Virus record (IMG/VR): IMGVR_UViG_2541046997_000001
Span: 1 to 35,306 of that record
DNA length: 35,306 nt
From: a virus
Lineage: Duplodnaviria > Heunggongvirae > Uroviricota > Caudoviricetes
Direction: 5' to 3' (one strand)
Both the position numbers and the translations under genes were made by a program. How positions within the stretch are numbered: the first letter of the stretch is position 1; each line of letters starts with the position of its first letter. Positions 14,795 to 34,914 of the stretch are shown here, piece by piece. The notes beneath the pieces were generated by a model. It had not been told where the DNA came from. It saw nothing but the letters and a program-made list of their open reading frames with translations, and did no database searches.

Positions 14795-14826
14795 TAAAAG
14801 AGCCAAGGCACATGACCTCGACTCTA
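14795..14826 (-). terminator. Intrinsic terminator just upstream of the Dit gene
   Basis: Minus-strand RNA reads AGAGUCGAGG-ucaugug-CCUUGGCUCU-UUUAUU. Confidence 0.6.
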
Positions 14827-14851
14827 TTAATCTTATATTTTTAAATATAAA

Positions 14852-14880
14852 TTGACAAAATGTAGTTTAATTGATATATT
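14852..14880 (+). promoter_or_regulatory. SigA-type promoter of moron 1
   Basis: TTGACA-17 nt-TATATT with TG at the extended -10 position. Confidence 0.75.
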
Positions 14881-14990
14881 ATGAATTGGCATTATCTAAT
14901 ACGGTAAGGACGGTTGTCTTCCACCAGAGAGCACAAGCTCTGTTCTTATAGAAACCTGTTTAGGAATCTTATGGAAAGGAGGACTTTTAC

Positions 14991-15137
14991 ATGGATTTAG
15001 CATTACAAGATTTATACTATATAGTGGGAATTTTTAGTTTGTCTATAAATATATCATATACGGTATATAAATTTGTAAAAGATAAAAGACATGAAAAAAG
15101 TAACTGTCCTCAGCCTGAGAAACTGAACAGTTACTAA
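14991..15137 (+). CDS. Small membrane peptide (48 aa), type I toxin-like
   Basis: MDLALQDLYYIVGIFSLSINISYTVYKFVKDKRHEKSNCPQPEKLNSY; not in the ORF track. AGGAGG RBS. The 5' leader pairs with the 3' trailer, and an antisense terminator overlaps the 3' end. Confidence 0.65.
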   Translation: MDLALQDLYYIVGIFSLSINISYTVYKFVKDKRHEKSNCPQPEKLNSY

Positions 15138-15605
15138 TTTCGTGTAACACATAGATTTCAGGGCAACCGTCATTGCTAACGATAATGCCATTTTATGTAC
15201 ATAAAAGTACACTAATTACAATATATAGTATTAATCGTTTTCACGATTCTAAATTCTGTAACCGCCATGAGTAAGCGGCTATTTATGCGTTAATAAAATT
15301 TTCATTTATTAGCCTTAAATGTCCAATAAAAGGCTCAACCGTCTATAGGATTCTGTTCTTTCCAACTAAACAAATTATATGATTAATCATTAAATGATTT
15401 ACTTCTTTTACTTACGATTATATTAGATTATTTTCTAATTGTAAATACATAGGCACTAAAAAGATGAAATAAAAAGTTATATTTGTATAAAATGCTATTT
15501 CTTCTTTTTAATGTCTATTTTTTTTGTTATATATTTTATGCAAATTTATTTATGGTTATGCTGACAGCCAGATTCGAATCAATCATTCTCTGACTGTCAG
15601 TAGTA

Positions 15606-17007: not shown

Positions 17008-17146
17008 CATTACCTTCACATAGTTCGCTACACTATGCAGTTCTTTTATGAACTTCTCTGGGATTTCCCCAGAAGTTGAGACTATACCTTCTATCTAATT
17101 CTCTCACACAAAAATAGAGCAGATAATATTACCATCCGCCCTACAT

Positions 17147-17695
17147 TTAATCTGTTAATTCTAATACATATAATTCGCATTTTTCATTATAAGAATCACC
17201 GACAGCCTTTTGTGTTTCGTCATTCGCTTTTTTAAATCCTAATGAATTATAGAATCGTATTCCTTGTTCATTGTCTGATTCTACAAATACAATTATGCCA
17301 TATATTGCAATAATCTTACTAACTTCTTTTATTTTAGGTATGATATAGTCATAAAATAAAACCTTACCTAAACCATTCCCTTGAAAATCAAAATCTACAG
17401 CAATTCTGGCAATTTCCACAACGGGTAGTGCCATATACTCATTTGTATATACATCAAACGTATGAATTGCATTGGCTTTGATTGTATAAAAGGCAAGTAT
17501 ACATGTTTTTTCATTATCCATTAAGATATATGTGTGACCTTGTTTCTCCTCGGAATAATCAAATGCATCATCTGATAAAAAAGTATTTAAAGGATTATCT
17601 GCGCCACAGCAAAAATCACCCACTAACATAAAGTGTTTTAATGATTCTTTATCTAAAAATTCCTCTTTATACTGTAAAAGTTCCGTATTACCCAT
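17147..17695 (-). CDS. GNAT-family acetyltransferase, putative toxin, inside intron C
   Basis: Motifs 'FCCG..PLNTFL' and 'LPVVEIARIAVDFDFQGNGLGKVL..GIRFYNSLGF'. The ATG at 17695 overlaps the end of the upstream small ORF. Confidence 0.85.
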   Translation of the reverse strand: MGNTELLQYKEEFLDKESLKHFMLVGDFCCGADNPLNTFLSDDAFDYSEEKQGHTYILMDNEKTCILAFYTIKANAIHTFDVYTNEYMALPVVEIARIAVDFDFQGNGLGKVLFYDYIIPKIKEVSKIIAIYGIIVFVESDNEQGIRFYNSLGFKKANDETQKAVGDSYNEKCELYVLELTD

Positions 17696-17891
17696 TACGT
17701 TTTCCTTTAAGTATTTCGGAAATTTTAGTATTAGTTTTTTTTCGTTGTTCATCTGTAAATGGCTTCAACTTACTACTTTTAAAATCTTGAATAATTTTTG
17801 TAGCAGCATCACCTTTTAATAATGGTACAACCGCCATTGAAACTGCCATATGCTTTGCCTCCTCTTTTGTATCAGGTCGATTATCGTTCAT
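17688..17891 (-). CDS. Small protein coupled to the GNAT, putative antitoxin
   Basis: 67 aa with GGAGG RBS; a second possible start at MAVSMAVV. Overlaps the GNAT start. Confidence 0.65.
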   Translation of the reverse strand: MNDNRPDTKEEAKHMAVSMAVVPLLKGDAATKIIQDFKSSKLKPFTDEQRKKTNTKISEILKGKRNG

Positions 17892-18336
17892 TTTATAATT
17901 CCTCCAATAAAAGAATTATAAAATATCTAACCTTATAAATAAGTCGAATCAAAATAGTTTCTATATTTATATTACAATATAATAAGAGAGTTTACAATAT
18001 TATGCAATACTAAAATTAATTTTTAAATTAGATAGTCTATATTTTTCGAGTTACCAATCGCTTGTAACCCTATGCCTACATATTATAATATATAGGACTT
18101 ACCAGTCGTTGAGCGTCTTCCATATCATAATTATATATGACTTAGGATGTTCGTTGCGTCTGGGTGACTTGCACACCCGGTTATCCCTAACCTATCTGTT
18201 TTTTATGGTTTCTATCCGTAGACTGTTGAGTTATAAACTCGCACCGCATTCACGTTTACCGTTTCCAGTTCCGTTGTAGCAAGATAGGGTTGTGGGGACT
18301 TTCCCGCTATTAAATAGAAGTCGCGCAAATAACTTC

Positions 18337-20132: not shown

Positions 20133-21594
20133 CGTTTTATTTTTTATAATTCGCTACATTATAAAGAGTATAAAAATACTCCTCACATTTTCATGTGAGA
20201 CTAGACTATATCTTTATGTAATTAGTTATTTTATTGTGTAAAATATGTATCAAGTATTTTGTCTATATATTTATAATTACGGTATGTAATTTCAATTAAT
20301 TTTATATCATTCTTAATACAATAATTTTTTTTGATTTTATCATGATTTTTTCGTATAATAAAATCTTCATATCCTCCAAAATATTTAATTGGACTAAAAT
20401 GTTGTAATCCTTGATATTCTATACAAATATTGTGATCTGGTAAATAAAAATCAAATGGAAGTGAAAGCTTGTCTTTACAATTATCAAAACGATGTTCTTG
20501 ATTGTAATTAATATTAAGTTTTGATAAATATTTTCGTATGTTATATTCTCCCAAACTTTCTTTTCTACTACATTTACGACAACATGCATTTTCATGTCTT
20601 GTAAATTGAAACAAGGAAGTAGTGTATGGTTTGTTACATTTTGGACACACAACTATTAGATTATTTACTTCCCATCCTTTGTATTCATTTTTATTTAATA
20701 ACTTACCGCCAAAAGCTGCAATTCGTTCTTCTACTTCATTTGGAGACAACATTAAATTTTTACTATTTTCTTCATTTTGACATTTTGAACATCCGTGTTG
20801 TGATACTAACGCATAAATTTTTGTTTCAAATACACCATGTTTCTTACATTCATATTTAACAATACTATCACTATTTTTAATTTCATCTTTTTGTGTTAAT
20901 AAGGTATATCCTTTTTTATTACAAAAATCTAATGCCCTAGTATATAATGAAAGTTGACGTTCTTTTAAGTTATATTCAGAAGTTTTTCTTTGTCTACATT
21001 TCTTGCAAGAATATTTATCGTATTTATATTTAAAATAATCTCTCCATTCAACTTTTACAATTTTCCCACAATAATCACATTTAACATTTACTTTTAAATG
21101 TGAGCCACTAGGTAAATCTTCTGGTTTTACAAACAAAGATTCTCTCATCTTTGTAAATACATATCCTTTTGAAATCAAATGTTTTTTATTTGAACAAGAC
21201 CATTTTGACTCTATTAATTGATTTTCTACTAATATTTTTTCACCTTCTTGTTTATATATTTTTTTTACACAATAAAAATCACGCAAAACTGCGTGATAAA
21301 AATAACTATAAATAATTTACATATTTACCTTTTCGGACTGCCAATAACTTGCACTCCTACTCCCTTATGGGATAGTCGTTGAACCTTATCCTGTTCGGAT
21401 CTTGGCTGCTGATTGCCCATTAAAAAAGAGCAGGGGATTTAACCTCGCTCTCATACAAATAATTTTTTCTGTTTTCACAACCTTCACGTTTGAGTATATT
21501 TCATCTCTACGTTGTGGTTTATTTGTCTTTAGGGTTTTCCAGCAATTAGATAAATTTTTTCATACATATCACTATGTAAGACCACTATAAATTT
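20133..21594 (-). ncRNA. Group I intron B (1462 nt, IA-like with P7.1/P7.2) in TMP
   Basis: P1 ACCAU/GUGGU with U.G. P element AAUUGCUGGAAA, Q element AAUCAGCAG, R element GUUCAACGACUA, S element AAGAUAUAGUC. P3 AUUUAUCU/AGGUAAAU. Terminal G at 20133. Splicing gives in-frame DIVFNH|KQTAELF. Confidence 0.95.
20231..21286 (-). CDS. Intron-encoded putative homing endonuclease: CxxC zinc repeats plus a Vsr/DUF559-like nuclease domain
   Basis: Lies in the P8 loop of intron B. Several CxxC pairs. C-terminal 'ESLGE..LPFDFYLPDHNICIEYQGLQHF..DKIKKNYC'. Start codon uncertain. Confidence 0.8.
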   Translation of the reverse strand: MRDFYCVKKIYKQEGEKILVENQLIESKWSCSNKKHLISKGYVFTKMRESLFVKPEDLPSGSHLKVNVKCDYCGKIVKVEWRDYFKYKYDKYSCKKCRQRKTSEYNLKERQLSLYTRALDFCNKKGYTLLTQKDEIKNSDSIVKYECKKHGVFETKIYALVSQHGCSKCQNEENSKNLMLSPNEVEERIAAFGGKLLNKNEYKGWEVNNLIVVCPKCNKPYTTSLFQFTRHENACCRKCSRKESLGEYNIRKYLSKLNINYNQEHRFDNCKDKLSLPFDFYLPDHNICIEYQGLQHFSPIKYFGGYEDFIIRKNHDKIKKNYCIKNDIKLIEITYRNYKYIDKILDTYFTQ

Positions 21595-24500
21595 ATGGTT
21601 GAAGACAATGTCGCCCTTCTTTAGTGGAACAAATTGTGCTCCGCCTTCGATTAAGTGCCAACGTCCATCTCTAACAATTAACTCATTTCCAAGCTCATTT
21701 ACAAGAGAAGTTTGATTTTTAGAAACGCCCCAGTCACCACTTGCGTTCGCGTTACCAGAGTAGTGATACAAATTAGTAGTCCCATTTGCGTTGGCGGTTC
21801 CATTTGCCCCGGCTCCATCTCCCTTGACATTGTTTGTAACAGAAGTAATATATACAGTTTTACTTTGCACAGAAGAGATAGCAGAAGCAAGAGCTGATAC
21901 ATCCCCCGTTCCAGATGTAGTGGCAGATACAGTTACAGATTTGCTTTGTACAGAATCAATAGCTGCTTTTAATGCTTTTACCAAATCCGTTCCAGTTACA
22001 TTTGCTTTTGCATCAACAGTTTTTCCTTCAAGCGTTCCTAACGAAGCCTTTAATGCTCCGATGAGTTCCAAACCTGTAACATTTGCCATTACAGATACAG
22101 ATTTCGCTTCATTACTCAATCCATTTATGGAAGATTTTATTCCGTCAAGTTCATCTTTTCCAGATACACTTATTGAAACCGCCAATTCTCTATCATCAAG
22201 AGAAGACAGCATGGTTTCTAAAGCAGTAATGTCATCTTTTCCGGCAACGTTCACAGTTATGGTTACATCTTTGTCCTGTATATCTTCAAGATGTAAGTCT
22301 TCTTTTGTTTCAAGCCCAACGGGTATTTTAATCTCGTCAGACATTAATTGAGATGCAATCTCATCAGGACTTAATCCTTCAATATTTAATTCTGCCTTAA
22401 TCTCTGGCGAAATATTTGCAAGCTCAGATTTTGCAGTTTCTACCTTGCTTAATGCTTCATCAAGTTTACTCGTATCGACATTAGGTGTAGATGCAACTAT
22501 ATCTGCATTTGTAACAGCATCATAATAATTCTGGAACAGTTGAACTGCATTTTGTAGTTCCGCACTTGCATTACTTGTATCAACACTTAAAACAGCAGGC
22601 TCATTTAACTCTGCACGTTTCTGAATCAAAGTAGAAAGAACTTGCTGTGCAGATTCTAATTGAGAAGCATCACAATTAATTGAACCATCAGAGTTATATA
22701 AAGAATTAATATACTCTTTTGTTTTTTCAATTTCATTATATATAGAAGAATCTGTCTTAGCATTTACATTAATATCAACTTTCCCACCAGTAGCTTCTTT
22801 AATTGCGTCTGCTGCTAGAGTAGCTTTGGCAATAGCTTCGTCTAAAGTACCTGTTTCTACTGACACAGATGAAGGATTTTCCAGAAGTTTTTTACGTTCT
22901 ATAGCTTCTTCAAGTAATGTATTTAGATTTTCGACTTCTGCACTATCAACACCAAATTTAGTTTCTGACTCATCACGCGCTTTCGTTAATTCTGCGATTC
23001 GAGCATCTAATCCTTCCGCATCTAGCTTAGAGGTATCTACATCTAAATCAATTTCCGGGAAATCAGATCCAGCTTCTTTTAACTGTTGAAGATTGGTTTT
23101 TGCTTTTTCAGCTTGAGCAGATAAGTCAGCTATTTTCTGAGCATAATTAGAATCGCCACTCGTATCTCCAACACGAATAGTATCATCATATTCGGTCATT
23201 GCGCGATATAATGTTTGAACAGCTTCCTTACTAATATTTAACCTTTTTGCAATTTCTTCATCTGCTCCAGTTTGAAATTCAAGAACACCATTTTCTAACT
23301 CTTTTACCCATCCCAATCCTTCATTATCAGAAAGAGTTTTCATATCTGTAACAAAATTGTCAAGACCTTGCTTGGTTCCGGTAAAGTATTTATCAATTAC
23401 AGGGAGAGACGATTCATATGCGGCAACAACTTCTTTCATGGAAGCAGTAGCTAAATCTTGGTTAGAATAGAATTGTGATATAGCTCTAAATTCCTCGGTG
23501 TTATATCGACCTTCTTTATAGAGTTCTTTACCACGCTCACGCATCGTTTCAGAAACTGTACGGAACATATCGCCTTCTTCACCATTAGATTGAGCAGACA
23601 TCCATTTTTGGTAAGCAGAGGTTGCACCATCATAGGCGGCTGATAATTGATTTACTGCTTCAAGCTGGCGACTTAATCCGTCTATAACAAGTTGAGAATT
23701 ATTATATTCAGAAGAACCTTTGTCATAATTATTCTGTTCTGCATATGCTTTATTCAACTGCTCTTGAAGTGATTGTTGTTTTTCTGCAAACTTCCCTTTT
23801 GTTATAGCTTCTTGTTGTGCTTGTAACTGGCGTAAAGCTTCTCTGTTTAGATGAACGCCATTTGCGGTTTTTTCAAATAACGTTGCAGGATCATAACCTT
23901 CCAAATCTTCATATGCGGAGGCTATTGCACCAATATCGCCTTCAAGTTCTCCTGTTTCTTCATTGAGAGAAACACCTAGCCCTTTGCCAGTATAACTATT
24001 TGCTAATACAGCATTTAAAGATTCTACAGAATTAATTTGTGATACAACATCTTTCTGAAAATCAGAAAAACTTTCTTCAAGTTTAGTTAGACCAGTATCT
24101 TGACTAGCAAGTGCTGAAATTTCTTCTCTGAGTGTTTCAACGCTGACACCTGCTTCATTACAGGCAGCAACTAATTCAGGAAACCCCTTGGTAATTTCAT
24201 CAACAGACAATTTGTCTCCACTTCTAAAAGCGTCTACTAATTTCTGTTGCGCTTGAGCAAAATCATTATTTTCCCAAATTTTAGATAATGCTTTAGCTGC
24301 TTTGGCTTGAGGATTTTCCCTGGTATAATCATCAATCACTTTTGTGATATCATTGAATTTCTTTAATTCTTTTGAAGACAATCCTTCTTTAGCAGCACCC
24401 GTTGTTTCATCCATGAAATTCTTTCTAAGATCTTGAAGAGTTTTCATGTTTTCGGAAACAGCGTCTTCATACATTTTCATATCTGACTTAAGAGTTTCTA

Positions 24501-25476
24501 TTTCTCCATCAATTTCAGATTTTCTCTTTTTATCTTTTTTTGAAGTTCCTAAGCCATCACGTTCTTTTAAAAGTTCTTCTCTTGTATCTTTTAACTCATT
24601 TAAAGCTTTAACTTCGTTTTGAGTAGCTGTTAGAATATCTGTTTTTTCATATCCAGTGTTTTCTACTCCTTGTGTAGCATTTGCACCTGCAGCCATTCGA
24701 TCAATCCAGTTATCAGACTCTAATAGTTTCTGTTGAGATGATTTTGTTGTTAAGTCATAAGTTTCTCTTTTGTTTAGAGAATCCATTGCAGAGCCGACAG
24801 CTTCTTTAGCTTCTTTATCTGCAATTTCTTTCTTTAAATCTCTCTGACGTTCTAGTTCAGCATTTTGTAATTTCAGTTGTGAAAGTTCAGATTGCTCTAC
24901 AAGATTTAAAGTTCCTTTAGATTCAAGTTCTGAAATTCTTGTAGATGTTGTTTCTATTTCAGAATTTAAAGATTTTACTTCTGCCATTGTAGAAGCGTAA
25001 GCTGATTGCGCTTCTTTTGCTTCCTCAACAGATCTCTTCATTTCAGTAGCTTTTAGGTACGCTAACAATGCCGCACCACCAATAACAGCACCACCAGCGA
25101 TGTAAGGACCTGCTTTCTTAAATACACTCAACAATCCTTTTCCGGCATTCTTGAATCCTTGCATAGCTTTCTGCCCGGTAGTCATTCCATCGCCAAGACC
25201 GTCTAGTGTTTTCTTAAGTTCACTTACACCTTCGGCTGCATCGCCAGCCCCTTCGAGAATATCACCAAGTTGATCTTTCCAGTGAGTGGCTTTTAATGCA
25301 TCTTTTGCAAAACTTTTTGAAACACCAGAATGTTTAAGAATCTTTTCAACTTCTTCTAAATCTTTTGCATTGTCTAAAACATTTTTAAACTTATCAAACT
25401 TTTTAAAATCCGTTATATCGGATAAACCATTAAACTCATCAAACAGATCGGAATATTCCCCTATTTCTTTTAATGA
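21595..25476 (-). CDS. Tape measure protein, exon 2
   Basis: The frame is open for 97 codons between the proposed splice site and the ATG at 25185 (SLKEIGEYSDLF...), with no ATG/GTG/TTG in that stretch. Helical TMP composition ending 'LVNELGNELIVRDG..KGDIVFNH'. Confidence 0.8.
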
Positions 25477-25481
25477 CTGTG

Positions 25482-25490
25482 TGGTATAAT
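25482..25490 (+). promoter_or_regulatory. Extended -10 promoter for the plus-strand cargo genes
   Basis: TGgTATAAT about 50 nt upstream of the ATG at 25539, which has an AAGGAG RBS. Confidence 0.65.
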
Positions 25491-25538
25491 ATAAAAAATG
25501 TTTCTATCATTTATTATATATTTAAGGAGATGAATTTA

Positions 25539-26021
25539 ATGGCATTATTATGTTGTCATGAATGTAAAAATAAAGTTTCTGATAAAGCTGAGACATGTCC
25601 TCATTGTGGATGTCCAATAGTTATTGATAAAAACAAAGAAAGAAAATATTCTAAAGTGAATGGGATTACTTATGATGTAACCGAACTTGTCGATTTGATT
25701 CTTAATCGTAAAACAATTGATGACGATAATGAAGTAAGTGATATTATAAGGAAGACAATGGATATTTCCCCAGTTAAGTTTACTTTACCTACGGTAGAAC
25801 TTGGGAGAGCGCCGGAAGAAATTAACTGTGAAACATTATCCGACTTCTCAAAAAGACAACGAGTCATCCAAGCATCAAAAATTCATTGTCCAAACTGTAG
25901 GTCAACAGATGTAAAACGCATATCTGCAACCGAGAGAGCAGCATCTGTTATTGGACTTGGGTTGCTTTCCAAGAAGATAAATAAAACATACAAGTGTAAT
26001 AAATGTAAGTATACTTGGTAG
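25539..26021 (+). CDS. Zinc-ribbon protein (N- and C-terminal CxxC pairs), intron A cargo
   Basis: 'MALLCCHECKNKVSDKAETCPHCGCP' and 'CPNCRSTDVKRIS..KTYKCNKCKYTW'. AAGGAG RBS. Confidence 0.8.
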   Translation: MALLCCHECKNKVSDKAETCPHCGCPIVIDKNKERKYSKVNGITYDVTELVDLILNRKTIDDDNEVSDIIRKTMDISPVKFTLPTVELGRAPEEINCETLSDFSKRQRVIQASKIHCPNCRSTDVKRISATERAASVIGLGLLSKKINKTYKCNKCKYTW

Positions 26022-26087
26022 TGGTATAGTATAAATACAATAACTGCAGAATTTTAGTTATAATAATGAAATGAGAGGTAAATATAA

Positions 26088-26618
26088 ATGTTAGTAGTAT
26101 GTCCTGAGTGCAAAAACGAGGTAAGCCAATATGCAGAATCGTGTCCAAACTGTGGATTCCCAATTATTAAATTTATGAAAGATAGCAATTTAACAGATAC
26201 CGAAAAAGTTGAAATTTGTCCTAAATGTGGCAGATTCAGCGAAGGAACACCGTATTATTTAAAATGTGATTATTGTGGAAGTACAATGGCACAAACTGAT
26301 TTAACAATGGACGAATGGATATCCGTATTGATGAAAAAGGATGCTTTTTCTTTTGTCGAAGATATGGCTAATAAATATGGTAATAATCAATTTTCAGAAG
26401 AAATGTTTAATACGCGTATGGGGCACAATCACTCAAACAGTCATACAAGTGAGCAGAAAAAAGAAGAAACTAACATCCCTAAATGTCCCACTTGTGGAAG
26501 TACAAAAATACGTAAAATTTCTGGAACTAAAAGAGCTGCTTCGATACTTGGGTTTGGTATCTTGAGTAATAACATTGGGAAAACATATGAATGTTTAAAT
26601 TGTAAATACAAATGGTAG
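26088..26618 (+). CDS. Zinc-ribbon protein, paralog of 25539..26021
   Basis: 'CPECKNEVSQYAESCPNCGFP' and 'PKCPTCGSTKIRKIS..KTYECLNCKYKW'. GAGG RBS. Confidence 0.85.
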   Translation: MLVVCPECKNEVSQYAESCPNCGFPIIKFMKDSNLTDTEKVEICPKCGRFSEGTPYYLKCDYCGSTMAQTDLTMDEWISVLMKKDAFSFVEDMANKYGNNQFSEEMFNTRMGHNHSNSHTSEQKKEETNIPKCPTCGSTKIRKISGTKRAASILGFGILSNNIGKTYECLNCKYKW

Positions 26619-26622
26619 TAGC

Positions 26623-27321
26623 ATGGTGGAGACAAAATTACGCTGGTTAGAATACTGTAAAGAAATTAAAAACATCCCGCCAATACAAGAGATAAAGCTT
26701 CTTGATAAAAATGATTCATCACACGCAAGATTTAAATCAATAGATTTGTATAATCAAAAATATATCTTATATGTTCAAAAGGAGATATATGAATATACGG
26801 AGGTTTCGACAAGATCTATATTATTTCATGAATTTACTCATCTTGCGGACTCAATAAAATATAGAGATAAAAAATATGAAGTATTCCTTAATATAATGGC
26901 TTCTTACTCAGAATATCATGCAGCATATATCGAAATGATTCAAATTATCAAAAGCTGCAATAGTAAATTAGTAAACAAGGAATCAGAGGTTATTTACAGA
27001 GCCGGCTGTCTTACTTTAGAATCCCTTATGTCTCAATCATACACAGCAGCGATAAAATGTTTTGAAAAAATTGATGGGTCTTTTGGATTACATGAGTTTT
27101 TTTATTATTTAGGATATAGAAAAGCTTTACAAAAATATAATTTGGAATTTGATTTTAATTTCTTGGATTTCAATCCGTTATATATGATTTATATTAAAAA
27201 TATTTCTGATTATGTGGAATCTAATGATATTCCCAAAATGGCTGATGAGCACTCAAAATTATTACACTCTATTGATATGGAGATAGAATCAAATAAAATT
27301 TTGAATCATTTTAATATTTAA
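26623..27321 (+). CDS. HExxH putative zinc metallopeptidase
   Basis: 'ILFHEFTHLAD' followed by 'SEYHA' as a candidate third ligand. Starts 4 nt after the upstream stop. Confidence 0.7.
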   Translation: MVETKLRWLEYCKEIKNIPPIQEIKLLDKNDSSHARFKSIDLYNQKYILYVQKEIYEYTEVSTRSILFHEFTHLADSIKYRDKKYEVFLNIMASYSEYHAAYIEMIQIIKSCNSKLVNKESEVIYRAGCLTLESLMSQSYTAAIKCFEKIDGSFGLHEFFYYLGYRKALQKYNLEFDFNFLDFNPLYMIYIKNISDYVESNDIPKMADEHSKLLHSIDMEIESNKILNHFNI

Positions 27322-27423
27322 AAACTGTTGTTTTCTTATGTTGCTACTTGGCTCTGCCAGACAAAGCTGCAGACATCAATGACAACGACAAAGATCAAGA
27401 GGAGGAGAAGAACAGCGGCTATC

Positions 27424-27594
27424 TTATAACTCCACATTGCCCAAAATTTTTTCTTTAAACTTTTTTATAATTGAATAACATTCAGATTGGTTTACATCAG
27501 TGCCGCAATATAGCGTGTTGATTAAACACTTTACAATATAATTTTCTTTTTCTTCACGCTGTAAATAATTATCAACGAAATTATTGTCAAACAT
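27424..27594 (-). CDS. Small hypothetical protein (56 aa)
   Basis: GAGGTG RBS before MFDNNFVDNY. Lies back-to-back with 27626..28060. Confidence 0.5.
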   Translation of the reverse strand: MFDNNFVDNYLQREEKENYIVKCLINTLYCGTDVNQSECYSIIKKFKEKILGNVEL

Positions 27595-27625
27595 ATTAAC
27601 ACCTCGATTCTGAAAGGAGATTACC

Positions 27626-28060
27626 ATGAAATTAAATCCAGATTGTATTAGAGATGTATTACTCTATTTAGAAGCTGAATTAGAAGTAGACTTGGAAAAA
27701 CAAAATTTTACAAGAATTAGTCTTAAACAGATAAAAGAACATTTTGAAAATATTTATTTTGAAGAAGATATTTGGTATACAGTGTACAATCTTCGTGAAA
27801 TGAGATATATTTCTGGAAACTTGGGTGACGCCGGAAGGAGATTAATGATGTTTTGTGAAATAGACAATATAACTCCATATGGACACCAGTTTTTAAATAC
27901 TATAAGACCAAAGTCTATTTGGGACGCAACAAAATCAGGAGCGTCTAAGATAGGTATAACTTCTCTATCTGCATTAAGCACAATAGCAATGGAAATAACA
28001 AAATCAGTTGTAACGAGAAAAGACGTTATAGATGAAATTGTATCTCTAATAAAATTTTAA
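27626..28060 (+). CDS. DUF2513-like protein
   Basis: 'MKLNPDCIRDVLLYLE..ITPYGHQFLNTIR..IWDATK' is the family pattern. AAGGAG RBS. Confidence 0.8.
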   Translation: MKLNPDCIRDVLLYLEAELEVDLEKQNFTRISLKQIKEHFENIYFEEDIWYTVYNLREMRYISGNLGDAGRRLMMFCEIDNITPYGHQFLNTIRPKSIWDATKSGASKIGITSLSALSTIAMEITKSVVTRKDVIDEIVSLIKF

Positions 28061-28142
28061 CAGCACAAGAAATAATAATATCATTAATACAAAAATCTCG
28101 TTTGAATATCTAATATTTTACCGAGTATTGTTTTCAAGCACA

Positions 28143-28172
28143 AAAATAGAGCAGTAGTAGTTACTGCTCTTG
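28143..28172. terminator. Hairpin terminator between the convergent DUF2513 and type III toxin genes
   Basis: AGAGCAGTA-gtagt-TACTGCTCT with a U-tract on the minus strand. Confidence 0.65.
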
Positions 28173-28655
28173 ATTTATATTTAATTCTTTGTGAAAATAT
28201 TTTAATGTAGACATTCCATACTTTCTTTTAAAATCCATTTTTGGCAAAGTAATTTCATTATTCATGTGCAATACATATTCATCTACATACTTAAGAGAAT
28301 CTTCAACTATTTTTGATATAAATCTTTTTGTCTTCATATATTCATCTCTATCAATCATTGCAGGTTCGGACGAAACAAAGTTATGATTTTTGATAATCAC
28401 TATTTTACTATAGTCAAGTCCTGAATTATGTTTATTTGATCGTTTTGTATTTTGAAATTTAAAAGCATATTTATGATGAATTTCACTTCTATATGGTATA
28501 CAAACGAAATAATCATAATGTGTCTGAATTAATAAACAATTATACCCTCTATTTTTCTTTTTTAACAATTCTGGATATTCTTTTGATGGATAATTATCAT
28601 AAAAGGCTTCTGTTAATTTCAATATCTGAAAATCAAAAATATTTTCTTCTTCCAT
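28161..28655 (-). CDS. tenpN: Type III toxin-antitoxin endoribonuclease toxin, TenpN-like
   Basis: 'RGYNCLLIQTHYDYFVCIPYRSEI..SGLDYSKIVII'. Preceded by a promoter, tandem repeats and a terminator, the canonical type III layout. Confidence 0.85.
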   Translation of the reverse strand: MEEENIFDFQILKLTEAFYDNYPSKEYPELLKKKNRGYNCLLIQTHYDYFVCIPYRSEIHHKYAFKFQNTKRSNKHNSGLDYSKIVIIKNHNFVSSEPAMIDRDEYMKTKRFISKIVEDSLKYVDEYVLHMNNEITLPKMDFKRKYGMSTLKYFHKELNINQEQ

Positions 28656-28669
28656 TATTTCTCCTTAGT

Positions 28670-28695
28670 AAAAAAGAGAGGAATACCCTCTCTTA
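28670..28695 (-). terminator. Terminator between the antitoxin repeats and the toxin gene
   Basis: AAGAGAGG-GUAUU-CCUCUCUU-UUUU. Confidence 0.85.
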
Positions 28696-28702
28696 ATATA
28701 CT

Positions 28703-28863
28703 TCATCACTCGGTTACATTTTATTTTATCGATGTGTCAGAACCGTCACACATCATCATCACTCGGTTACATTTTATTTTATCGATGTGTCAGAACCGTC
28801 ACGCATCATCATCACTCGGTTACATTTTATTTTACCGTCCTGTCAGAACCGTCACAGGACTCA
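28703..28863 (-). ncRNA. tenpI: Type III antitoxin RNA (TenpI-like): three tandem ~53-nt pseudoknot repeats
   Basis: Units start at 28703, 28756 and 28809. Stem GAUGUG/CACAUC (GUCCUG/CAGGAC in one unit). Loop CGGUU pairs the downstream AACCG. Confidence 0.88.
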
Positions 28864-28904
28864 TATGTGATGAATTGAGAAAACACTGTGGTCTTCTTAT
28901 TTAT

Positions 28905-28933
28905 ATTATATCCAACAATCGGAGAAAAGTCTA
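28905..28933 (-). promoter_or_regulatory. Promoter of the type III TA operon
   Basis: TAGACT-17 nt-TATAAT. Confidence 0.75.
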
Positions 28934-29000
28934 CTAAAAATATAGCTAATAAAACAAGATGAATTTATGCAAAATATACAAATAGAGCAGTGGTTAGTAT

Positions 29001-29165
29001 CTATCGTATAATTCCACAAATTTTCTTATCACCAGATAAAACATCTATTGACCAGTTTATAGGAATAATATCTTTTAACGCTTCTTCGGAAGAAACGATT
29101 TTTAATTTTCTTCCGGATAATTTAGAAAAATCTAATCGTCTTTTTTTCTTCTCAACCATATACAT
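29001..29165 (-). CDS. Small hypothetical protein (54 aa)
   Basis: MYMVEKKKRRLDFSKLSGRKLKIVSSEEALKDIIPINWS... AAGGGA RBS. Not in the ORF track. Confidence 0.55.
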   Translation of the reverse strand: MYMVEKKKRRLDFSKLSGRKLKIVSSEEALKDIIPINWSIDVLSGDKKICGIIR

Positions 29166-29185
29166 ATTTGTCCCTTCTATAAAAA

Positions 29186-29773
29186 TTAACTATACACAAT
29201 TTCAATTCTATCAAAGTCTTTCGTGTTTAACACAATAAGCTCTTTCGGATTATTAGAATTGTCGATTATAACATTTGCTTCCTCGTCCAATTTTTGATAC
29301 ATCGTTAACGCAATTATTGGTTCATCTTTGTTTGATTGACCATATTTATATAATCCAAGATATGACTTTCCGTCTTTTAAAAATACTCTTACCCATGTAT
29401 TATCTTTGAAAATATCCATCCAAAAATCGTCATTAGTTGTGCGGTAAATATGTAATTTTAACAAAAGATTATTGAATGCTGTTGAATGGCATAATTCACC
29501 TAAAATTACTCCTAATAACAAACCAATAATTGTGAGTAAAATAATACGCTGGTCTGGTAAAATAATGATCTTGGCTTTCTTCAAAATAAAATCAAATACA
29601 ATACCAAGAATATAGCTTGCAGCAACGCTTTTGATAATTAAATTGTTAAAATTTTTATGATCTACAAAAGATACCCAATAATAAGTGGATAAAAAAATAT
29701 ATCCAGGAATTACAAAAGATAATATGTATGGTATATTATCTATAAGATCAATTATCCAATTTATACTTATCAC
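29186..29773 (-). CDS. Membrane protein, DUF6338-like
   Basis: Three hydrophobic segments, with 'FVIPGYIF' and 'DDFW..WVRVFLKDGKSYLG'. Confidence 0.7.
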   Translation of the reverse strand: MISINWIIDLIDNIPYILSFVIPGYIFLSTYYWVSFVDHKNFNNLIIKSVAASYILGIVFDFILKKAKIIILPDQRIILLTIIGLLLGVILGELCHSTAFNNLLLKLHIYRTTNDDFWMDIFKDNTWVRVFLKDGKSYLGLYKYGQSNKDEPIIALTMYQKLDEEANVIIDNSNNPKELIVLNTKDFDRIEIVYS

Positions 29774-29919
29774 CTCTGATTTTCATTATTGTTTTGAGAT
29801 TCAGATTGTCTTACCGGAGGGGTAGTGTTTTCCGTTGTAGAATTCCTCTGATAACTTGAAATCTCAAAAACGGGATTATTTGTATTTTGGTTTCTTTTTG
29901 TTTCATCTTCTGTTCCCAT
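29770..29919 (-). CDS. Small hydrophilic peptide (49 aa) coupled to the membrane protein
   Basis: AAGGAG RBS. MGTEDETKRNQ...; the TGA overlaps the next GTG (GTGA). Confidence 0.6.
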   Translation of the reverse strand: MGTEDETKRNQNTNNPVFEISSYQRNSTTENTTPPVRQSESQNNNENQR

Positions 29920-29981
29920 ATTTATTCTCCTTTTCTAAACTTATATTTATTATAACTCGTACTAGAATAGAAGAGTAGTCG

Positions 29982-29993
29982 GAACATGTGTTT
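29982..29993. promoter_or_regulatory. LexA (Cheo-box)-like site upstream of the intron A cargo promoter
   Basis: GAAC-ATGT-GTTT, one mismatch to GAAC-N4-GTTC. Minus-strand TATAAT at 29949-29954. Confidence 0.5.
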
Positions 29994-30635
29994 TGTTTTT
30001 GTGTAAATTTTCTCATATCACTGGAACCAAACAGCATTAGAGATTTGCTGCTAGAAAATAATCCGAAGATTATATTGGTTACGGCACTCCAGATTTTGCC
30101 GGAAGTTTTAAAAGCATATATCTATGCCACACATGGTACTGACAGTCTATGTTAAGTCAGATTGCCAGTAACGTATTACTAAAACTTTTCTAAATCGCAA
30201 TACGCACTATGCCTTAAAAGAAGAATAGCATTTATGGCAGTTATTCTCTCCGAGGATGGGTATGTCTCTGGGGATACTATCTGTTAATGACCTTCATTAT
30301 ATACGCCAAAAGAATTAACTCAGATATTGTCCTGCTCGTTGTCCTTTATATTCTTACTTAGATGTCTTAACATTTTCATATTAATATTCATATAAGAACA
30401 AATCATTTATTTGGGTTTCCCTACCTACTGTTATGGGTATGATTTGCAAAATAAGATTTCAAGCATTTACTCCTCTATGGGTCAAAACCATAATAAATAT
30501 ATGGAACTCACCATGCTCCGCCACTTGATATTACAATGCCATAATATTGTAAATCTTATGTCGGCTAGACTCATATATAATATAGGAATATTTTACTTAT
30601 TTTATTATATATGTAACCCTGTGTTTTATAGGTTA

Positions 30636-32576
30636 ATCTAAGTTTTTAAAAAATGCAAAAGCTCCTCCCCCAATTGAAAGCACTCCAAGTGGTGATACTG
30701 CTTTTACCAATCCGTCAAATCCTTTAACTAACTGATTAATTAGTTGAACTGCGGATGTAATTTGTCCTGCATCTGCAAAGTTTGAAATAAATTGTTGCCA
30801 AGAGTTAGAAAGTTGATTTAAGCTTCCTTTCCAGTTATTTGCTGACTTTTCTGCTTCAATGGCTGCACTACCTGATCCTTCAGAATAATCTTTTAGCATT
30901 TTGTCATAATCTTGCTGACCTGAAAGAATGGATGCGAGAACATTGGCATGATGTTTTTGACCGATATTATTTAAAATATCTGCTTTTTCGGTCGATCCGT
31001 CTGGTAAAGCATTATATACATCAGACAATTCTTTTAGTAATTCGATAGGTGTTTTTAAATATTCTGAATCCCCTACCATTTTTGTCATTGAAATCCCAAC
31101 ATTATCTAAAGTGCTTACAACTTTATCGTTGGAAGTATTTGTTAAGTTGACAAATAAGGCTTTTAATGCGGTTCCAATTTCGTTCCCCGATTTTTTTGTT
31201 CTCGAGACAGCTGTGCCGACCAAAGCGGATAATTCGTTTACAGAAACACCTGTTTGCGCCGCCATAGAACCTGCCTGAGTCGTAGCTTCTGCAAGATCTG
31301 TCATTGAAACGCTGTTCCTGTTACTTATCATATTTTGTCCGTCAAGTACATCGTTCAATTTCTGAGCAGAGCCTGCATATTCGTAAGCAGCATTAGTAGC
31401 CAGTAGATAACTATTAGCCGTGTCAGCATTCATATCACCGGCAGCTTGTGCCAACACTGACACATTTGCCATATCAACTCCCTGCTGTCCATAAAATCCG
31501 CTTCGGCTCATTTCTGTAACACCTTGTAAATAATCGGTTACAGTTTTACCATAATTACTTGCATATCCATAAGCATCTTGCCTTAACTGTTTTAGAGAAG
31601 AAGATGATAAATCAGATGTTTTAGAAATTTCAGTAAGAATGTCATCAACTTGTTTAAGCCGTTCAATTGATTGTGATATTGAGTCAATACCTCTTTCAAT
31701 CACGCCGTATGTAGTTGCAAACTGTGCGATTTGCTTAAAACCCCTACCCAACTCATTGAGTACAGATCGACCGGTGACTCCTTCGGCTTCTGCACGAGCT
31801 TTGACAAGAGCGACTTGTTTATTTAAATCATTTAATTGCCATTTACTAGTCGCCTCTTGTTGTAATTTTGCTAGTTGTTGCAATTCCTGACGGTACGCTT
31901 TTGTAAGCTTTGTATTTTTTTCTACAAATGAAATAGTTTTTTGACTTGCAATCAGACCTTCATTATGTTTTAATAATCCGCTTTGTGAATTCGCTGCAAT
32001 CTTAGTTTCGTTATTACATTTTTCAATTGCTTTCTGAAGCCTATTGTAATCTTCAATAACGTCACTAATATTGCTGTTACTTTTTAAATTAAAACTATCA
32101 TCAAAATTACCTTTGAGTTTCTCTGACAGATTATTTACATTTTTTAAAGATGACTCTAAATTTTTAAATTCACTACCATCTAAGCTATATTCAAGATTTT
32201 TAATTTGCTTACCTAAATTAGAAACGTCCAAATCTAATTTGCTTGTTGATAATTTTCTTTGAATACTTTGTATAGTTTGTTCTGTTTGTTTGGCGGCATT
32301 TGCCTGTGCTTTACTTAAATCAAAGTCAAAACTAATTTTATTTTTCTTATTACTAACAGACGATTGAAAACTACTTGAAAATTTTCTTCCAGCTGACGAC
32401 CCGGATCGTTCAATGTCCTTTATTAAATTGGGAATGCTAGAAGCATTAAATTTCGCATCATCTATTCCAAGTTTAATGGTGTGTTCTTTTGCCGTTAATT
32501 TGTCCAGCTTCGCCTGTGCAGCATCTAGCGCAGAATCCTGAACTTTTGCAACGACATCAACTTCGTATTGACTCAT
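30636..32576 (-). CDS. Tape measure protein, exon 1 (TP901-family core)
   Basis: GAAAGGAG RBS. 'VDDILTEISKTSD..EMSRSG..GNEIGTALK..GSAAIEAEKSANNWKGSLNQLSNSW'. The TAA that ends the ORF is the first codon of predicted intron A. Confidence 0.92.
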
Positions 32577-32607
32577 GTTTTATAAATCACTCCTTTCATT
32601 TTTGAGC

Positions 32608-32635
32608 AAAATAAAAGCCCTCATGAAAGAGAGCA
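32608..32635 (-). terminator. Intrinsic terminator-like hairpin directly upstream of the TMP start
   Basis: GCUCUC-uuucau-GAGGGC-UUUUAUUUU. Confidence 0.55.
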
Positions 32636-32924
32636 TCAGTAGAAAACTGTATTTATTTTTTGGAAATGTTTGATATAATGTAAATGGGTATATGTCGATT
32701 GGATCCACCACAGCCAATCCGTTGTCACGGGTATGTATCTGGCAGTCTGTCTTAATAAGCTCCTGTGGGAGCATACGCGATATGTATGCAAAATGATATA
32801 AATAGTGCATATGCACTAGAAAGTCGAAGGTATTATCTTATGCTTGAGCAATCGGCATTCTATATGAGGGTCTCTCATGAAAACTTCCTTTCTGGCACAT
32901 TATTGTACAGAAGGGAGGTGAAAT

Positions 32925-33095
32925 GTGACACAGATTATAATTTTAAGTTTACTTATAATATTGACAATTCTTGCAATTATTTTATTGGTTGTAGTTAAGA
33001 TGTTATTTAGCCGTAATATAAAAACTACACAATGTAATTTCAAGATTCTCAATTGGATTAAATTTAATTTCTCTGTTTCATATTTTAATGAATAA
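32925..33095 (+). CDS. Small membrane protein (56 aa), moron 2
   Basis: GTG start, MTQIIILSLLIILTILAIILLVVVKMLFSRNIK... The GGGAGG RBS lies within a 12-bp hairpin. Not in the ORF track. Confidence 0.65.
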   Translation: MTQIIILSLLIILTILAIILLVVVKMLFSRNIKTTQCNFKILNWIKFNFSVSYFNE

Positions 33096-33152
33096 TTCTT
33101 ATATATAACTTCTTCTTAATTTGTGTGTATCATCCATTATTTATCATCGTCA

Positions 33153-33184
33153 TTTTACCCGGAGAGTAGTATCTCCGGGGTTTT
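33153..33184. terminator. Bidirectional terminator-like hairpin
   Basis: CCCGGAGA-gtagta-TCTCCGGG-GTTTT between convergent genes. Confidence 0.65.
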
Positions 33185-33189
33185 CTATA

Positions 33190-33591
33190 TCACTTTAAGA
33201 ATTTCGCCATATTTCTGTCCACAATTTCCGGAATTGCATTTCTTGTTGCCTCAAAATATCTATGGTTCCCCAATGTATGTCCGATTGCCCCCGTTTCTGT
33301 CGCCTCAATTACTTGTGCACCTGTATACGTTCCAGTATGATAAGAAATACTTTCTTCCATTTCTGCTTTAAATTTAAACAAATTCCCTCCACCAGAAACA
33401 GGAGTAGTATTAGGCGATTCTAACAACGTTCCTGTTCTCTCGTATTTTACAGGGTTTCCAATATCATAATATCCCATTACATTATCTTCTAATTTTACTT
33501 TGACTTCATCTCTTGCAGCATTCATTCCTGCACGAACATCTTTTTCCATCAATTTTTTAACTTCCAAAAAACTAGATACTTTTTTTGCCAT
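33190..33591 (-). CDS. Hypothetical phage protein upstream of TMP
   Basis: 133-aa ORF with AGGTG RBS and a 'P.KYERTG.LL' motif. Function not assigned. Confidence 0.65.
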   Translation of the reverse strand: MAKKVSSFLEVKKLMEKDVRAGMNAARDEVKVKLEDNVMGYYDIGNPVKYERTGTLLESPNTTPVSGGGNLFKFKAEMEESISYHTGTYTGAQVIEATETGAIGHTLGNHRYFEATRNAIPEIVDRNMAKFLK

Positions 33592-33602
33592 AAAACACCT
33601 AT

Positions 33603-34262
33603 TTAATTAGGAAGATTTTCACCAGTAGAATGAATTACCAATGCTCTCTCAAGCACCTGTCTGGCTTTATCATCTCCGACAATCTTAGAAAATTCTCGAA
33701 TCTGCTCATTCTTTACATCTAAAACTTCCTTGTCTTTTTCTTTTTTAAAGTCACTCTGCAAAAATGAGTTCACTAAATTATCTGCCGTAAGTCCTGATTC
33801 ATTAAACTTCTTCATAAACTCATTAATCTCATTTGGTTTTAATTGATCAAGAAAAGAAGTAATGCCAGTGGATAATGCATCTAAAAGATTTGAAAGTGAA
33901 TCTTTTTTATTAGATAAATCATTCAAATATTTTTGTTTCATAAATTCGACCTTGTCAATTACATTATCTTCGATATATGTAATAGTTGATAGATTTTCTT
34001 TTCCAAACACTTTGATTAAATCCATTACTTCATCATCTTCTGAAATAGAAGAGTAGATGTATTCGCCCTCATCAAATTCTAATCCTTCGAAGAAATATTT
34101 TACATATGCTTCCATAGTTGCGATTCCATAAAAGTATGGGGTATAATCATCAATATATCCGTCATCGTCAAAAGAAAAATAACTTGCCACAATATATTCA
34201 ATGGCATTAATTTTATCTGCAAAAGAAATGTTTTCTTTAATTTTCATATTTGTTTTTCTCAT
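33603..34262 (-). CDS. Hypothetical acidic protein, possible tail assembly chaperone
   Basis: 219 aa with AAGGAG RBS. The function is inferred from position only. Confidence 0.55.
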   Translation of the reverse strand: MRKTNMKIKENISFADKINAIEYIVASYFSFDDDGYIDDYTPYFYGIATMEAYVKYFFEGLEFDEGEYIYSSISEDDEVMDLIKVFGKENLSTITYIEDNVIDKVEFMKQKYLNDLSNKKDSLSNLLDALSTGITSFLDQLKPNEINEFMKKFNESGLTADNLVNSFLQSDFKKEKDKEVLDVKNEQIREFSKIVGDDKARQVLERALVIHSTGENLPN

Positions 34263-34299
34263 GTTTTTAAATCTCCTTTAAAATAAAATTATAAACTTT

Positions 34300-34344
34300 G
34301 AACAAATGTTCCGACTTCCAAAATCTTCCTGAAGGTGATACACT
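34300..34344 (+). promoter_or_regulatory. LexA (Cheo) box plus promoter of moron 3
   Basis: Perfect GAAC-AAAT-GTTC at 34300-34311, then TTCCAA-17 nt-TACACT with an extended TG. Confidence 0.6.
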
Positions 34345-34536
34345 ATATTCATGTAGGAAGCCGCGAGCGCAACCGCGGCTGTTGCGCTCCTACAAAAAAT
34401 AATCACCATGACCAGGTTATAATAGGTCAGAAAGTAAGGTGTATAACAATCAGAAGTTTTTACAATTCTGAGCGATCTGCTCATTCTGATTTCCCCATGA
34501 CAATAGATGATTCTTTCATCAGAGGGGAGGTAAAGA

Positions 34537-34731
34537 GTGCATTCAGATCGAAAAAACAAATTCCGGTTTTCAAAACTTGCAATTGTTTCTACATTTATAT
34601 CAGTGACAAGTATCGCTATTGTCTATCTGATATTATGCAACCATCCTAAATCACTTAATGCATTAGTTGATTTTAAAAATGGTTGTATTGAAGTGAGTTG
34701 TGATTTTGAAAGTCAGAAAAATACGAAGTGA
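34537..34731 (+). CDS. Small membrane protein (64 aa), moron 3
   Basis: GGGGAGG RBS, GTG start, one transmembrane segment and a long GC-richer leader. Confidence 0.6.
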   Translation: MHSDRKNKFRFSKLAIVSTFISVTSIAIVYLILCNHPKSLNALVDFKNGCIEVSCDFESQKNTK

Positions 34732-34914
34732 TAAGATTCGTATATTTTACATGGCAGTGCTTATCACGCTGCCAAAACTTATAGTATAGTGTTACTATTT
34801 TAGTCACTATATCTTTTAATTCTCTTTATGTTCTCAAATGAAAACGAAATTTTATTTTTACATCAAAAAAGAGCCGACATAAATCGACTCTTAAATACAT
34901 TTTTATTTCGTTCA

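Follow-up and report, generated by a model that had tools for sequence, protein, structure and literature searches.

We propose that the TenpIN toxin-antitoxin (TA) unit of this provirus is exchangeable cargo of a group I-type intron (intron A), and that the intron is removed in cis from a long late read-through transcript, a reading that we hold with somewhat more confidence than doubt. The DNA analysed (the window, 35.3 kb) is the start of a 164-kb provirus record with a completeness of 98%; the names of homologues suggest a host of Lachnospiraceae type. Coordinates are window positions and, unless stated otherwise, features lie on the minus strand, where the head and tail genes of the window form one block. 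The tape-measure protein (TMP) gene is split into four pieces on this strand, and translation after removal of introns A (30635-25477), B (21594-20133) and C (18336-17008) gives a single frame of 3,006 aa. Within an essential tail gene, a self-splicing intron seems to act as a hotspot for defence genes; the TenpIN cassette alone would be routine, and its intron setting is the point of interest.

The TenpIN unit

An earlier note on this DNA had described a complete type III, TenpIN-like TA unit inside intron A on the pre-mRNA strand. We found every part that it had named on the minus strand, in the order promoter-like site, repeats, terminator and toxin gene. The putative promoter is a sigma-70-type site (TAGACT-17-TATAAT, 28933-28905) identified by consensus match only (10/12 matches), and such sites are as frequent as in shuffled sequence (38 versus 35.0); its position upstream of the cassette is kept in homologous TenpIN units. 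Three repeats follow at 53-nt spacing (28703-28861), each folding as an H-type pseudoknot with an A-rich loop. The reported swap of one stem (GAUGUG/CACAUC to GUCCUG/CAGGAC) with retention of the CGGUU/AACCG pseudoknot is borne out by repeat 1 (28809-28861; stem 1 GUCCUGU/ACAGGAC) and repeat 3 (28703-28755; GAUGUGU/ACACAUC), but the middle repeat (28756-28808) departs from the pattern, with one broken pair in stem 1 (GAUGCGU versus ACACAUC). Across 10 repeats from five loci, 118 of 120 cells are paired (98.3%) and 6 of 12 pairs are changed on both sides, counts that are inflated by the relatedness of the sequences compared. This level of covariation was matched by 0 of 500 shuffles; in the pseudoknot stem proper, just one of five pairs is compensatory. 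The number of repeats is three in the window, two in L052 and one in L054, where assembly collapse is possible, and contigs of run X7 carry the cassette in intron A with one repeat fewer.

Between tenpI and tenpN lies the intrinsic terminator that the note had reported (28670-28694; hairpin 28694-28674 followed by a U tract), and a bidirectional terminator (28148-28170; hairpin 28170-28148) stands where sense and antisense cargo meet. The folding z-scores of the two hairpins are -2.1 and -4.0, and the second is also present in relatives that lack tenpIN. All terminator hairpins described here are predictions. The tenpN gene (28655-28161) encodes a toxin of 164 aa that matches NF047358 (TenpIN toxin) at 162.8 bits, against a cut-off of 90, and that has a homologue annotated as a TenpIN family toxin. 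Its candidate active-site residues, P54-Y-R56-S57, align with P53-L-R55-S56 of TenpN, in which the Arg-Ser pair matters (available text of PMC13682666). For a structure model of the toxin (pLDDT 90.8), the best Foldseek row was AbiQ (E 5.9e-3, TM 0.54), with ToxN at TM 0.53-0.60 and zero rows at E <= 0.001. Pfam and PADLOC scans both passed over the toxin, and PDB sequence searches gave nothing useful.

This TA unit is an ordinary member of the TenpIN family. As far as the available text of PMC13682666 and PMC12283969 describes them, TenpIN systems share with it the promoter, non-identical repeats, terminator and toxin, as well as the H-type pseudoknot, the longer stem 1, the A-rich loop and the R-S pair; these sources already report the family from tailed-phage genomes and describe its non-identical repeats. 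The unit differs from them in lying inside an intron of an essential phage gene, and the accessible main text of the TenpIN family survey mentions neither 'intron' nor 'tape measure'. By analogy with the family, the cassette would be transcribed in the lysogen from its own promoter, and TenpN would cut and bind the repeats and be held inhibited until phage attack, with defence or prophage stabilisation as the presumed outcome. The sequence GAUG is absent from the 605-nt core of intron A in the window and is found in other cores, and we attach no meaning to its absence.

Evidence for splicing of intron A

Intron A (25477-30635; 5,159 nt, boundaries predicted) was compared with related loci that protein and pattern scans had brought together. 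These relatives agree in their first 600 nt and last 10-60 nt and diverge in the middle. TMP exon 1 (30636-32576; TIGR01760, PF10145) encodes 647 aa, ends in N-L-D at the U of a U-G pair and is followed by a stop codon directly at the junction. Joined to exon 2 (21595-25476), it gives 1,941 aa without stops, which align across the junction with the TMPs of L101 and L104, two of the four uninterrupted TMPs compared. In P1, UUAGAU of the exon pairs with GUCUAG, ending in the U-G pair, and L025 and L152 carry compensatory changes. In all 9 tabulated lineages and in six further loci, the 3' splice site is a G and the exon behind it is in frame; the sites of the window's clade were set by motif and reading frame, and hence depend on the model. 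The anatomy of the whole intron comprises P1 with its U-G pair, the terminal G and a P10 formed by the first bases of exon 2, P10 being poor in the L057 group and in L041. From these features we infer that intron A is spliced. A blind duplex search across whole loci was also tried and set aside, false sites often being top-ranked in the window's clade.

Alternatively, exon 1 and the downstream part might yield separate tail polypeptides, with the intervening RNA a structured relic or a regulatory leader that is never spliced. This would fit the stop at the end of exon 1, and most of 40 related TMP genes stop nearby. It would also fit the seven runs compared, all of them contigs and the majority probably DNA: none contains the 30636-25476 joint, and neither a precursor nor a transcript end was seen, an absence that carries no weight because contigs lose rare forms. 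The single run recorded as RNA, likewise consisting of contigs, shows unspliced, DNA-like sequence. No close intron-less allele for intron A was found among the collected loci. Rfam searches (E <= 1 and E <= 10) returned nothing above gathering score for the core, which is weak evidence, since introns B and C were overlooked as well in one of these searches. However, phage group I introns usually start with a stop codon (available text of PMC2504315), and uninterrupted homologues run continuously across the site. Furthermore, no conserved start site lies at the head of exon 2, and the U-G pair of P1, the terminal G, P10 and the in-frame junction are kept despite differing exon 2 sequences. Together with the covariation of the core helices described below, this makes the absence of splicing highly improbable in our judgement.

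The genome has one intron-A core. We found no core match in the INPHARED phage set, and a scan of genome contigs gave eight matches, none confirmed by the core profile, which we took as chance. The minimum free energy fold of the core alone was uninformative (z -1.4). The N-termini encoded by exon 2 are highly mosaic among lineages. Long intergenic stretches with small antisense ORFs and hairpins flank the TMP gene (34260-34890 and 32580-33190, both minus strand, and 14820-15600); they are possible type I TA loci or antitermination RNAs.

A ribozyme core with a predicted split P7

The predicted ribozyme is complete within the initial 540 nt of intron A, its core (P2-P9, 30100-30564) lying entirely in the 5' part of the intron. 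P3, P4 and P6 were identified by eye from alignments, with P/Q/R/S-like motifs in order, and a kissing interaction is predicted between L2 and L8 (AUGGC, 30542-30538, with GCCAU, 30238-30234). When P8 and P9 were tested, 13 of 27 core pairs had changed on both sides, a number equalled by 0 of 500 shuffles; by helix, compensatory pairs amount to 9/12 in P8 and 3/9 in P9.

In the canonical P7, six pairs run without a break, and the pocket pair G264-C311 adjoins C262-G312 (available text of PMC10020454). We found no contiguous six-pair P7 in intron A, where the 3' strand is broken after UAGU, and we classed the intron as a variant working like a group I intron and not as a canonical member. The 5' strand of P7 is G[A]GAC[A]UA (30260-30268). 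Its predicted 3' strand (30135-30209) begins with UAGU (30209-30206), continues through two inserted hairpins (30205-30171 and 30170-30137) and ends with CC (30136-30135), which would close the guanosine pocket. The dinucleotide after the hairpins (CC, CU or CG) complements the 5' strand in 12 of 12 sequences, a count in which its position was taken by eye from the hairpin end and in which the automatic fold had misplaced the hairpins in 2 of the 12. The rule was derived from the window's clade and L082 and only then checked on L152, L192, L208, L248 and L283. The base next to the pocket varies together with the initial base of the 5' strand (G-C in five, A-U in five and C-G in two), and at least two double changes are needed on the P7 tree; the covariation amounts to two events only, and the lower four pairs are invariant. 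The bulged base of P7 is C when the pair is A-U and A otherwise, the same rule that holds in canonical group I introns. A full-length MAFFT alignment misplaced the CC site and a column scan did not recover it, unrelated columns giving 10/12 complementary. One relative, L103, has an apparently contiguous P7, as judged by eye.

We consider it quite probable that intron A has a split P7 helix, and this predicted helix is the new element among its features. No discontinuous P7 was found described in open-access PMC and bioRxiv text. If true, the split would be a new way of building the most conserved helix of group I ribozymes. The same observations can be read as a degenerate ribozyme with a broken guanosine pocket, in which case the prophage would be defective or reliant on a helper RNA or protein. 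Immediately behind UAGU, where the partner of the pocket G would be expected, no sequence has a C. Eight of the 12 sequences have no candidate contiguous 3' strand for P7, the other four have a chance-like match only, in a hairpin loop or far downstream, and L041 docks poorly. Nevertheless, the partner after the two hairpins tracks the 5' strand throughout, the family is widespread with its core conserved during cargo turnover, and the provirus record is nearly complete. Hence, we regard degeneracy as very unlikely.

At the end of the core, AAAACUUCCG (30100-30109) is conserved in the window's clade only. It has two possible CGGAG partners, on the 3' side of P2 or at the start of P8, and could be a folding switch.

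Recognition of the distant 3' splice site

The earlier note had taken the 3' piece of the intron to be an arm of ~17 nt, with a duplex that might hold two RNAs together. The piece that we identified has only 8 nt, CCACACA plus the terminal G (25484-25477), and the only long duplex found at the far end involves coding sequence of exon 2: 30592-30582 is predicted to pair with 25464-25452. Because this 3' partner lies in coding exon 2, the predicted duplex is an extended P10-type pairing. The 5' partner belongs to the L1 region (30565-30635), which comprises a hairpin (30635-30614), a P1-extension stem (30613-30572) and the internal guide GUCUAG (30570-30565); the docking arm, 30592-30582, lies in the loop and 3' side of the P1-extension stem, and this stem covaries. 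CCACACA is the 3' strand of P9.0 and forms 7 bp with UGUGUGG (30127-30133). P9.0 has A-U instead of U-A in L057, a compensatory change, and is weak in L028 and L025.

In the window, the duplex between arm and exon 2 is stronger than those of all 1,293 other windows tested. Across the window's clade it is modest (-8.6 to -19 kcal/mol) and an allele's own exon is not always the best match; for L024, 98 of 1,428 other windows did better. The sister clade shows no conservation ahead of the terminal G; its duplex, with energies of -27 to -33 kcal/mol, reaches up to 22 bp, begins at the exact splice site and shows compensatory change in L152. Across the intron family, P9.0 and a long P10 thus seem to substitute for each other. 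L041 has a core 99% like that of the window, joined to the exon 2 of another lineage with a poor duplex and no P9.0 (4090-4160 after the 5' site); it may be a chimera, a dead allele or a case of tolerance. The modest duplexes of the window's clade, the poor docking of L041 and the silence of Rfam on the core weigh against our preferred reading.

We suggest the following mechanism. The ribozyme would fold wholly from the first 540 nt and P1 would fix the 5' site, with the guanosine pocket closed by the CC located after the hairpins inserted in the 3' strand of P7. After 4.6 kb, the L1 arm would capture exon 2, and P10, P9.0 and the terminal G would dock the 3' site. Docking of this kind uses nothing of the cargo, and the cargo would therefore be freely exchangeable. 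If the precursor were nicked within the cargo with exon 2 already docked, splicing would go on.

Exchangeable cargo of intron A

The TenpIN unit is one of many cargoes found between the kept ends of intron A, whose length among alleles is 2.2-6.7 kb, with a multi-gene island of 1.6-6 kb. We counted 36 distinct alleles, leaving out five duplicates, seven with a later-found 3' site and loci short of flanking DNA (nine with longer flanks and 17 with 300-nt flanks). A sense-strand RNase toxin is encoded in 17 of the 36 (TenpN 1, CptN 3, CptN-like 1 and PemK-like 12), so that about half of the alleles place an RNase toxin on the pre-mRNA strand; TnpB is found in two of the 36. In the window, the cargo also includes a DUF6338 protein gene (29186-29773, profile match) and a block on the plus strand, antisense to TMP (25473-28060), with genes for a DUF2513 protein (27626-28060), an unknown protein (26623-27321) and zinc-ribbon proteins (26088-26618 and 25473-26021). 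Zinc-ribbon genes are the commonest cargo, with 31 of 36 alleles in one cluster. A TG-n-TATAAT promoter element (25485-25490, plus strand) lies at the 3' splice site, upstream of the zinc-ribbon genes.

In nearly all lineages, an antisense element of this kind lies across the 3' splice site, and it is the predicted driver of the zinc-ribbon genes. Elsewhere, seven loci (L118, L120, L150, L020, L021, L138 and L025) carry other defence-like cargo: a TIR-domain protein, a GmrSD N-terminal domain, DUF3800, a GNAT-like toxin-antitoxin pair and TnpB.

Cis or trans splicing

The earlier note had framed the question as trans-splicing versus read-through past the terminators, and that framing holds up. 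Its view that the TenpIN unit hints at trans-splicing finds no support here. A terminator-like hairpin with a U tract lies on the same strand in 36 of 36 alleles whatever the cargo, typically where sense and antisense cargo converge; in shuffles of four alleles, such a terminator occurred in 5-30%. Terminator-like hairpins also precede seven late genes, TMP included, and a TenpIN unit 77% identical to that of the window sits in the L8 loop of a conventionally built intron C in the same gene of L058. Toxin left free would act on the exons too and not on the intron alone.

Positions 1-57,000 of the genome contain 20 minus-strand hairpins, seven of which stand 23-60 nt ahead of a late gene; that before TMP (32617-32634) is 40 nt ahead of the start codon. 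Gaps of this size leave little room for promoters. In each of the seven relatives checked, one or more hairpins upstream of the intron lie no farther than 60 nt from a gene start. Read-through is therefore likely to be needed in the late region even without the intron, as judged from the sequence, and the late-operon hairpins suggest a processive antitermination system in these large Firmicutes phages. Processive antitermination across many terminators is known in Gram-positive mobile elements (available text of PMC8191782). During lytic growth, such a system would carry the polymerase past the late-gene hairpins and both terminators of intron A. About a dozen terminator-like hairpins lie between late genes of the minus strand in the same 1-57,000 stretch (G000).

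Several points count against removal in cis. IStron splicing falls steeply with cargo of ~1.2 kb (available text of bioRxiv 2023.11.20.567912), which makes 4.6 kb demanding, and head-on antisense transcription adds to the difficulty. Moreover, we found no antiterminator: a NusG family scan of the genome gave no match (0/1; controls positive 10/14), and none of 51 proteins scanned (39 of these from 137 ORFs outside the window) matched an antiterminator family. The phage has two sigma-like genes, at 95825 and 125754, and promoters of these factors could overlie the late-gene hairpins, which would weaken the case for read-through; a late-promoter motif search found none.

If splicing were instead mainly in trans, the 5' RNA would end at a cargo terminator or where TenpN or a host RNase had cleaved it, and the G and exon 2 would come from a second RNA, captured by the L1 arm, P10 and P9.0. 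The core is complete in the 5' piece, and only 8 nt (in the sister clade, only the G) would be needed from the 3' piece. The sister-clade duplex, with its start at the splice site and its compensatory change in L152, would suit such a capture, and every allele has a same-strand terminator and 17 an RNase toxin. There are also precedents in the available text of two papers: engineered ribozymes find a 3' site in trans through strengthened P10 and P9.0 (PMC6155759), and in one trans-spliced group I intron of mitochondria the break lies between P9.1 and the 3' end (PMC3873408). However, none of the 43 alleles for which enough DNA was available carries a rearrangement of the kind usual in known trans introns. 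A sense promoter near the 3' site did not exceed chance in any of 16 lineages (0/16 at p < 0.05 versus shuffles; p 0.09-0.9), the antisense TATAAT being the top-scoring site there in 15 of 16, and read-through seems to be required upstream anyway. Finally, the short intron of L103 also has an arm duplex, predicted by eye, so that such a duplex is not the sign of a split intron. On balance, we think that splicing mainly in trans is possible but rather doubtful. Cis and trans splicing could also both be in use together.

A more specific form of the idea is that the split-helix group I ribozyme is a natural guide-directed 3'-splice-site machine, with exon 1 and the ribozyme freed as one RNA by cargo terminators or cargo RNase toxins, and a separate exon-2 RNA captured by the long antisense arm. 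We put this forward tentatively, as unlikely on present evidence. If true, natural trans-splicing of a group I intron would extend beyond organelles, and the phage would store RNA-cutting defence genes in an essential mRNA at no cost. The long-arm clade is a natural counterpart of the ribozymes engineered for trans-splicing at a 3' site, for which it could offer a better starting scaffold. Our preferred reading nonetheless is removal of intron A in cis with the TenpIN unit as exchangeable cargo.

Relationship to known introns

TMP group I introns, ribozymes at the front of introns with distant 3' sites, and TenpIN units in phages are already in print. TMP-IVS1-3 of Bacillus cereus group prophages (available text of PMC2504315) resemble intron A in their gene, in the early stop codon, in the presence of several group I introns per gene and in the occurrence of different introns at one site. 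They carry a homing endonuclease gene or none, whereas intron A carries a swappable multi-gene island, with cargo promoters and terminators on both strands, long-arm docking and a predicted split P7. IStrons (available text of PMC4227781 and bioRxiv 2023.11.20.567912) likewise have the ribozyme in front and a distant 3' site. In Firmicutes, they are spliced in cis with genes downstream of P9.2 (PMC4227781), which sets a precedent for cis splicing with such a layout. IStrons are described as IA2 introns of 0.5-2.6 kb that occupy many genomic sites, have a terminal stem and are joined to a transposon of the IS200/605 or IS607 type; in contrast, intron A has no transposase in the window's cargo and no P7.1/P7.2, and it stays at one site.

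Among mitochondrial trans introns, the break after P9.1 in Prasinoderma Pr.rnl.2 would match intron A, but the natural trans introns covered by the available text of PMC3873408 come from organelles, and their pieces often lie at a distance from each other or on opposite strands, whereas all 43 alleles are collinear. The 3'-site capture of the engineered P10/P9.0 trans ribozymes (PMC6155759, available text) would match the anatomy of intron A. In open-access PMC and bioRxiv text, we did not find introns with multi-gene cargo described in tape-measure genes.

Introns B, C and other interruptions of TMP genes

Intron B (20133-21594) contains an HNH-type endonuclease gene and is exactly absent from L001, L003 and L004, its junction being identical to the intron-less allele in these 3 of 3 relatives. 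It has two same-strand terminator-like hairpins (21451 and 21296). Intron C (17008-18336) has a conventional group I layout, and contigs of run X3 hold an allele without it. Its L8 contains a small gene paired with a GNAT acetyltransferase gene, likely a type II TA pair, and a same-strand terminator. The P8 stem around this cargo has another sequence in L006 and in L058, whose cargo is also different (a TenpIN unit in L058).

Among the 40 related TMP genes (set L068-L105, from about position 10700 onward), four are uninterrupted and most have an interruption at nearly the same place. The interrupting group I types are unrelated to each other (L071/L085/L097/L098, the L072 group, L073, L081 and L103); they are front-loaded with cargo behind, and the L1 arm matches exon 2 in most of those checked. 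An extra insertion in TMP exon 1, at window position 31326, is present in L003 (8797-9999) and L006 (8780-9999) and is likely another group I intron.
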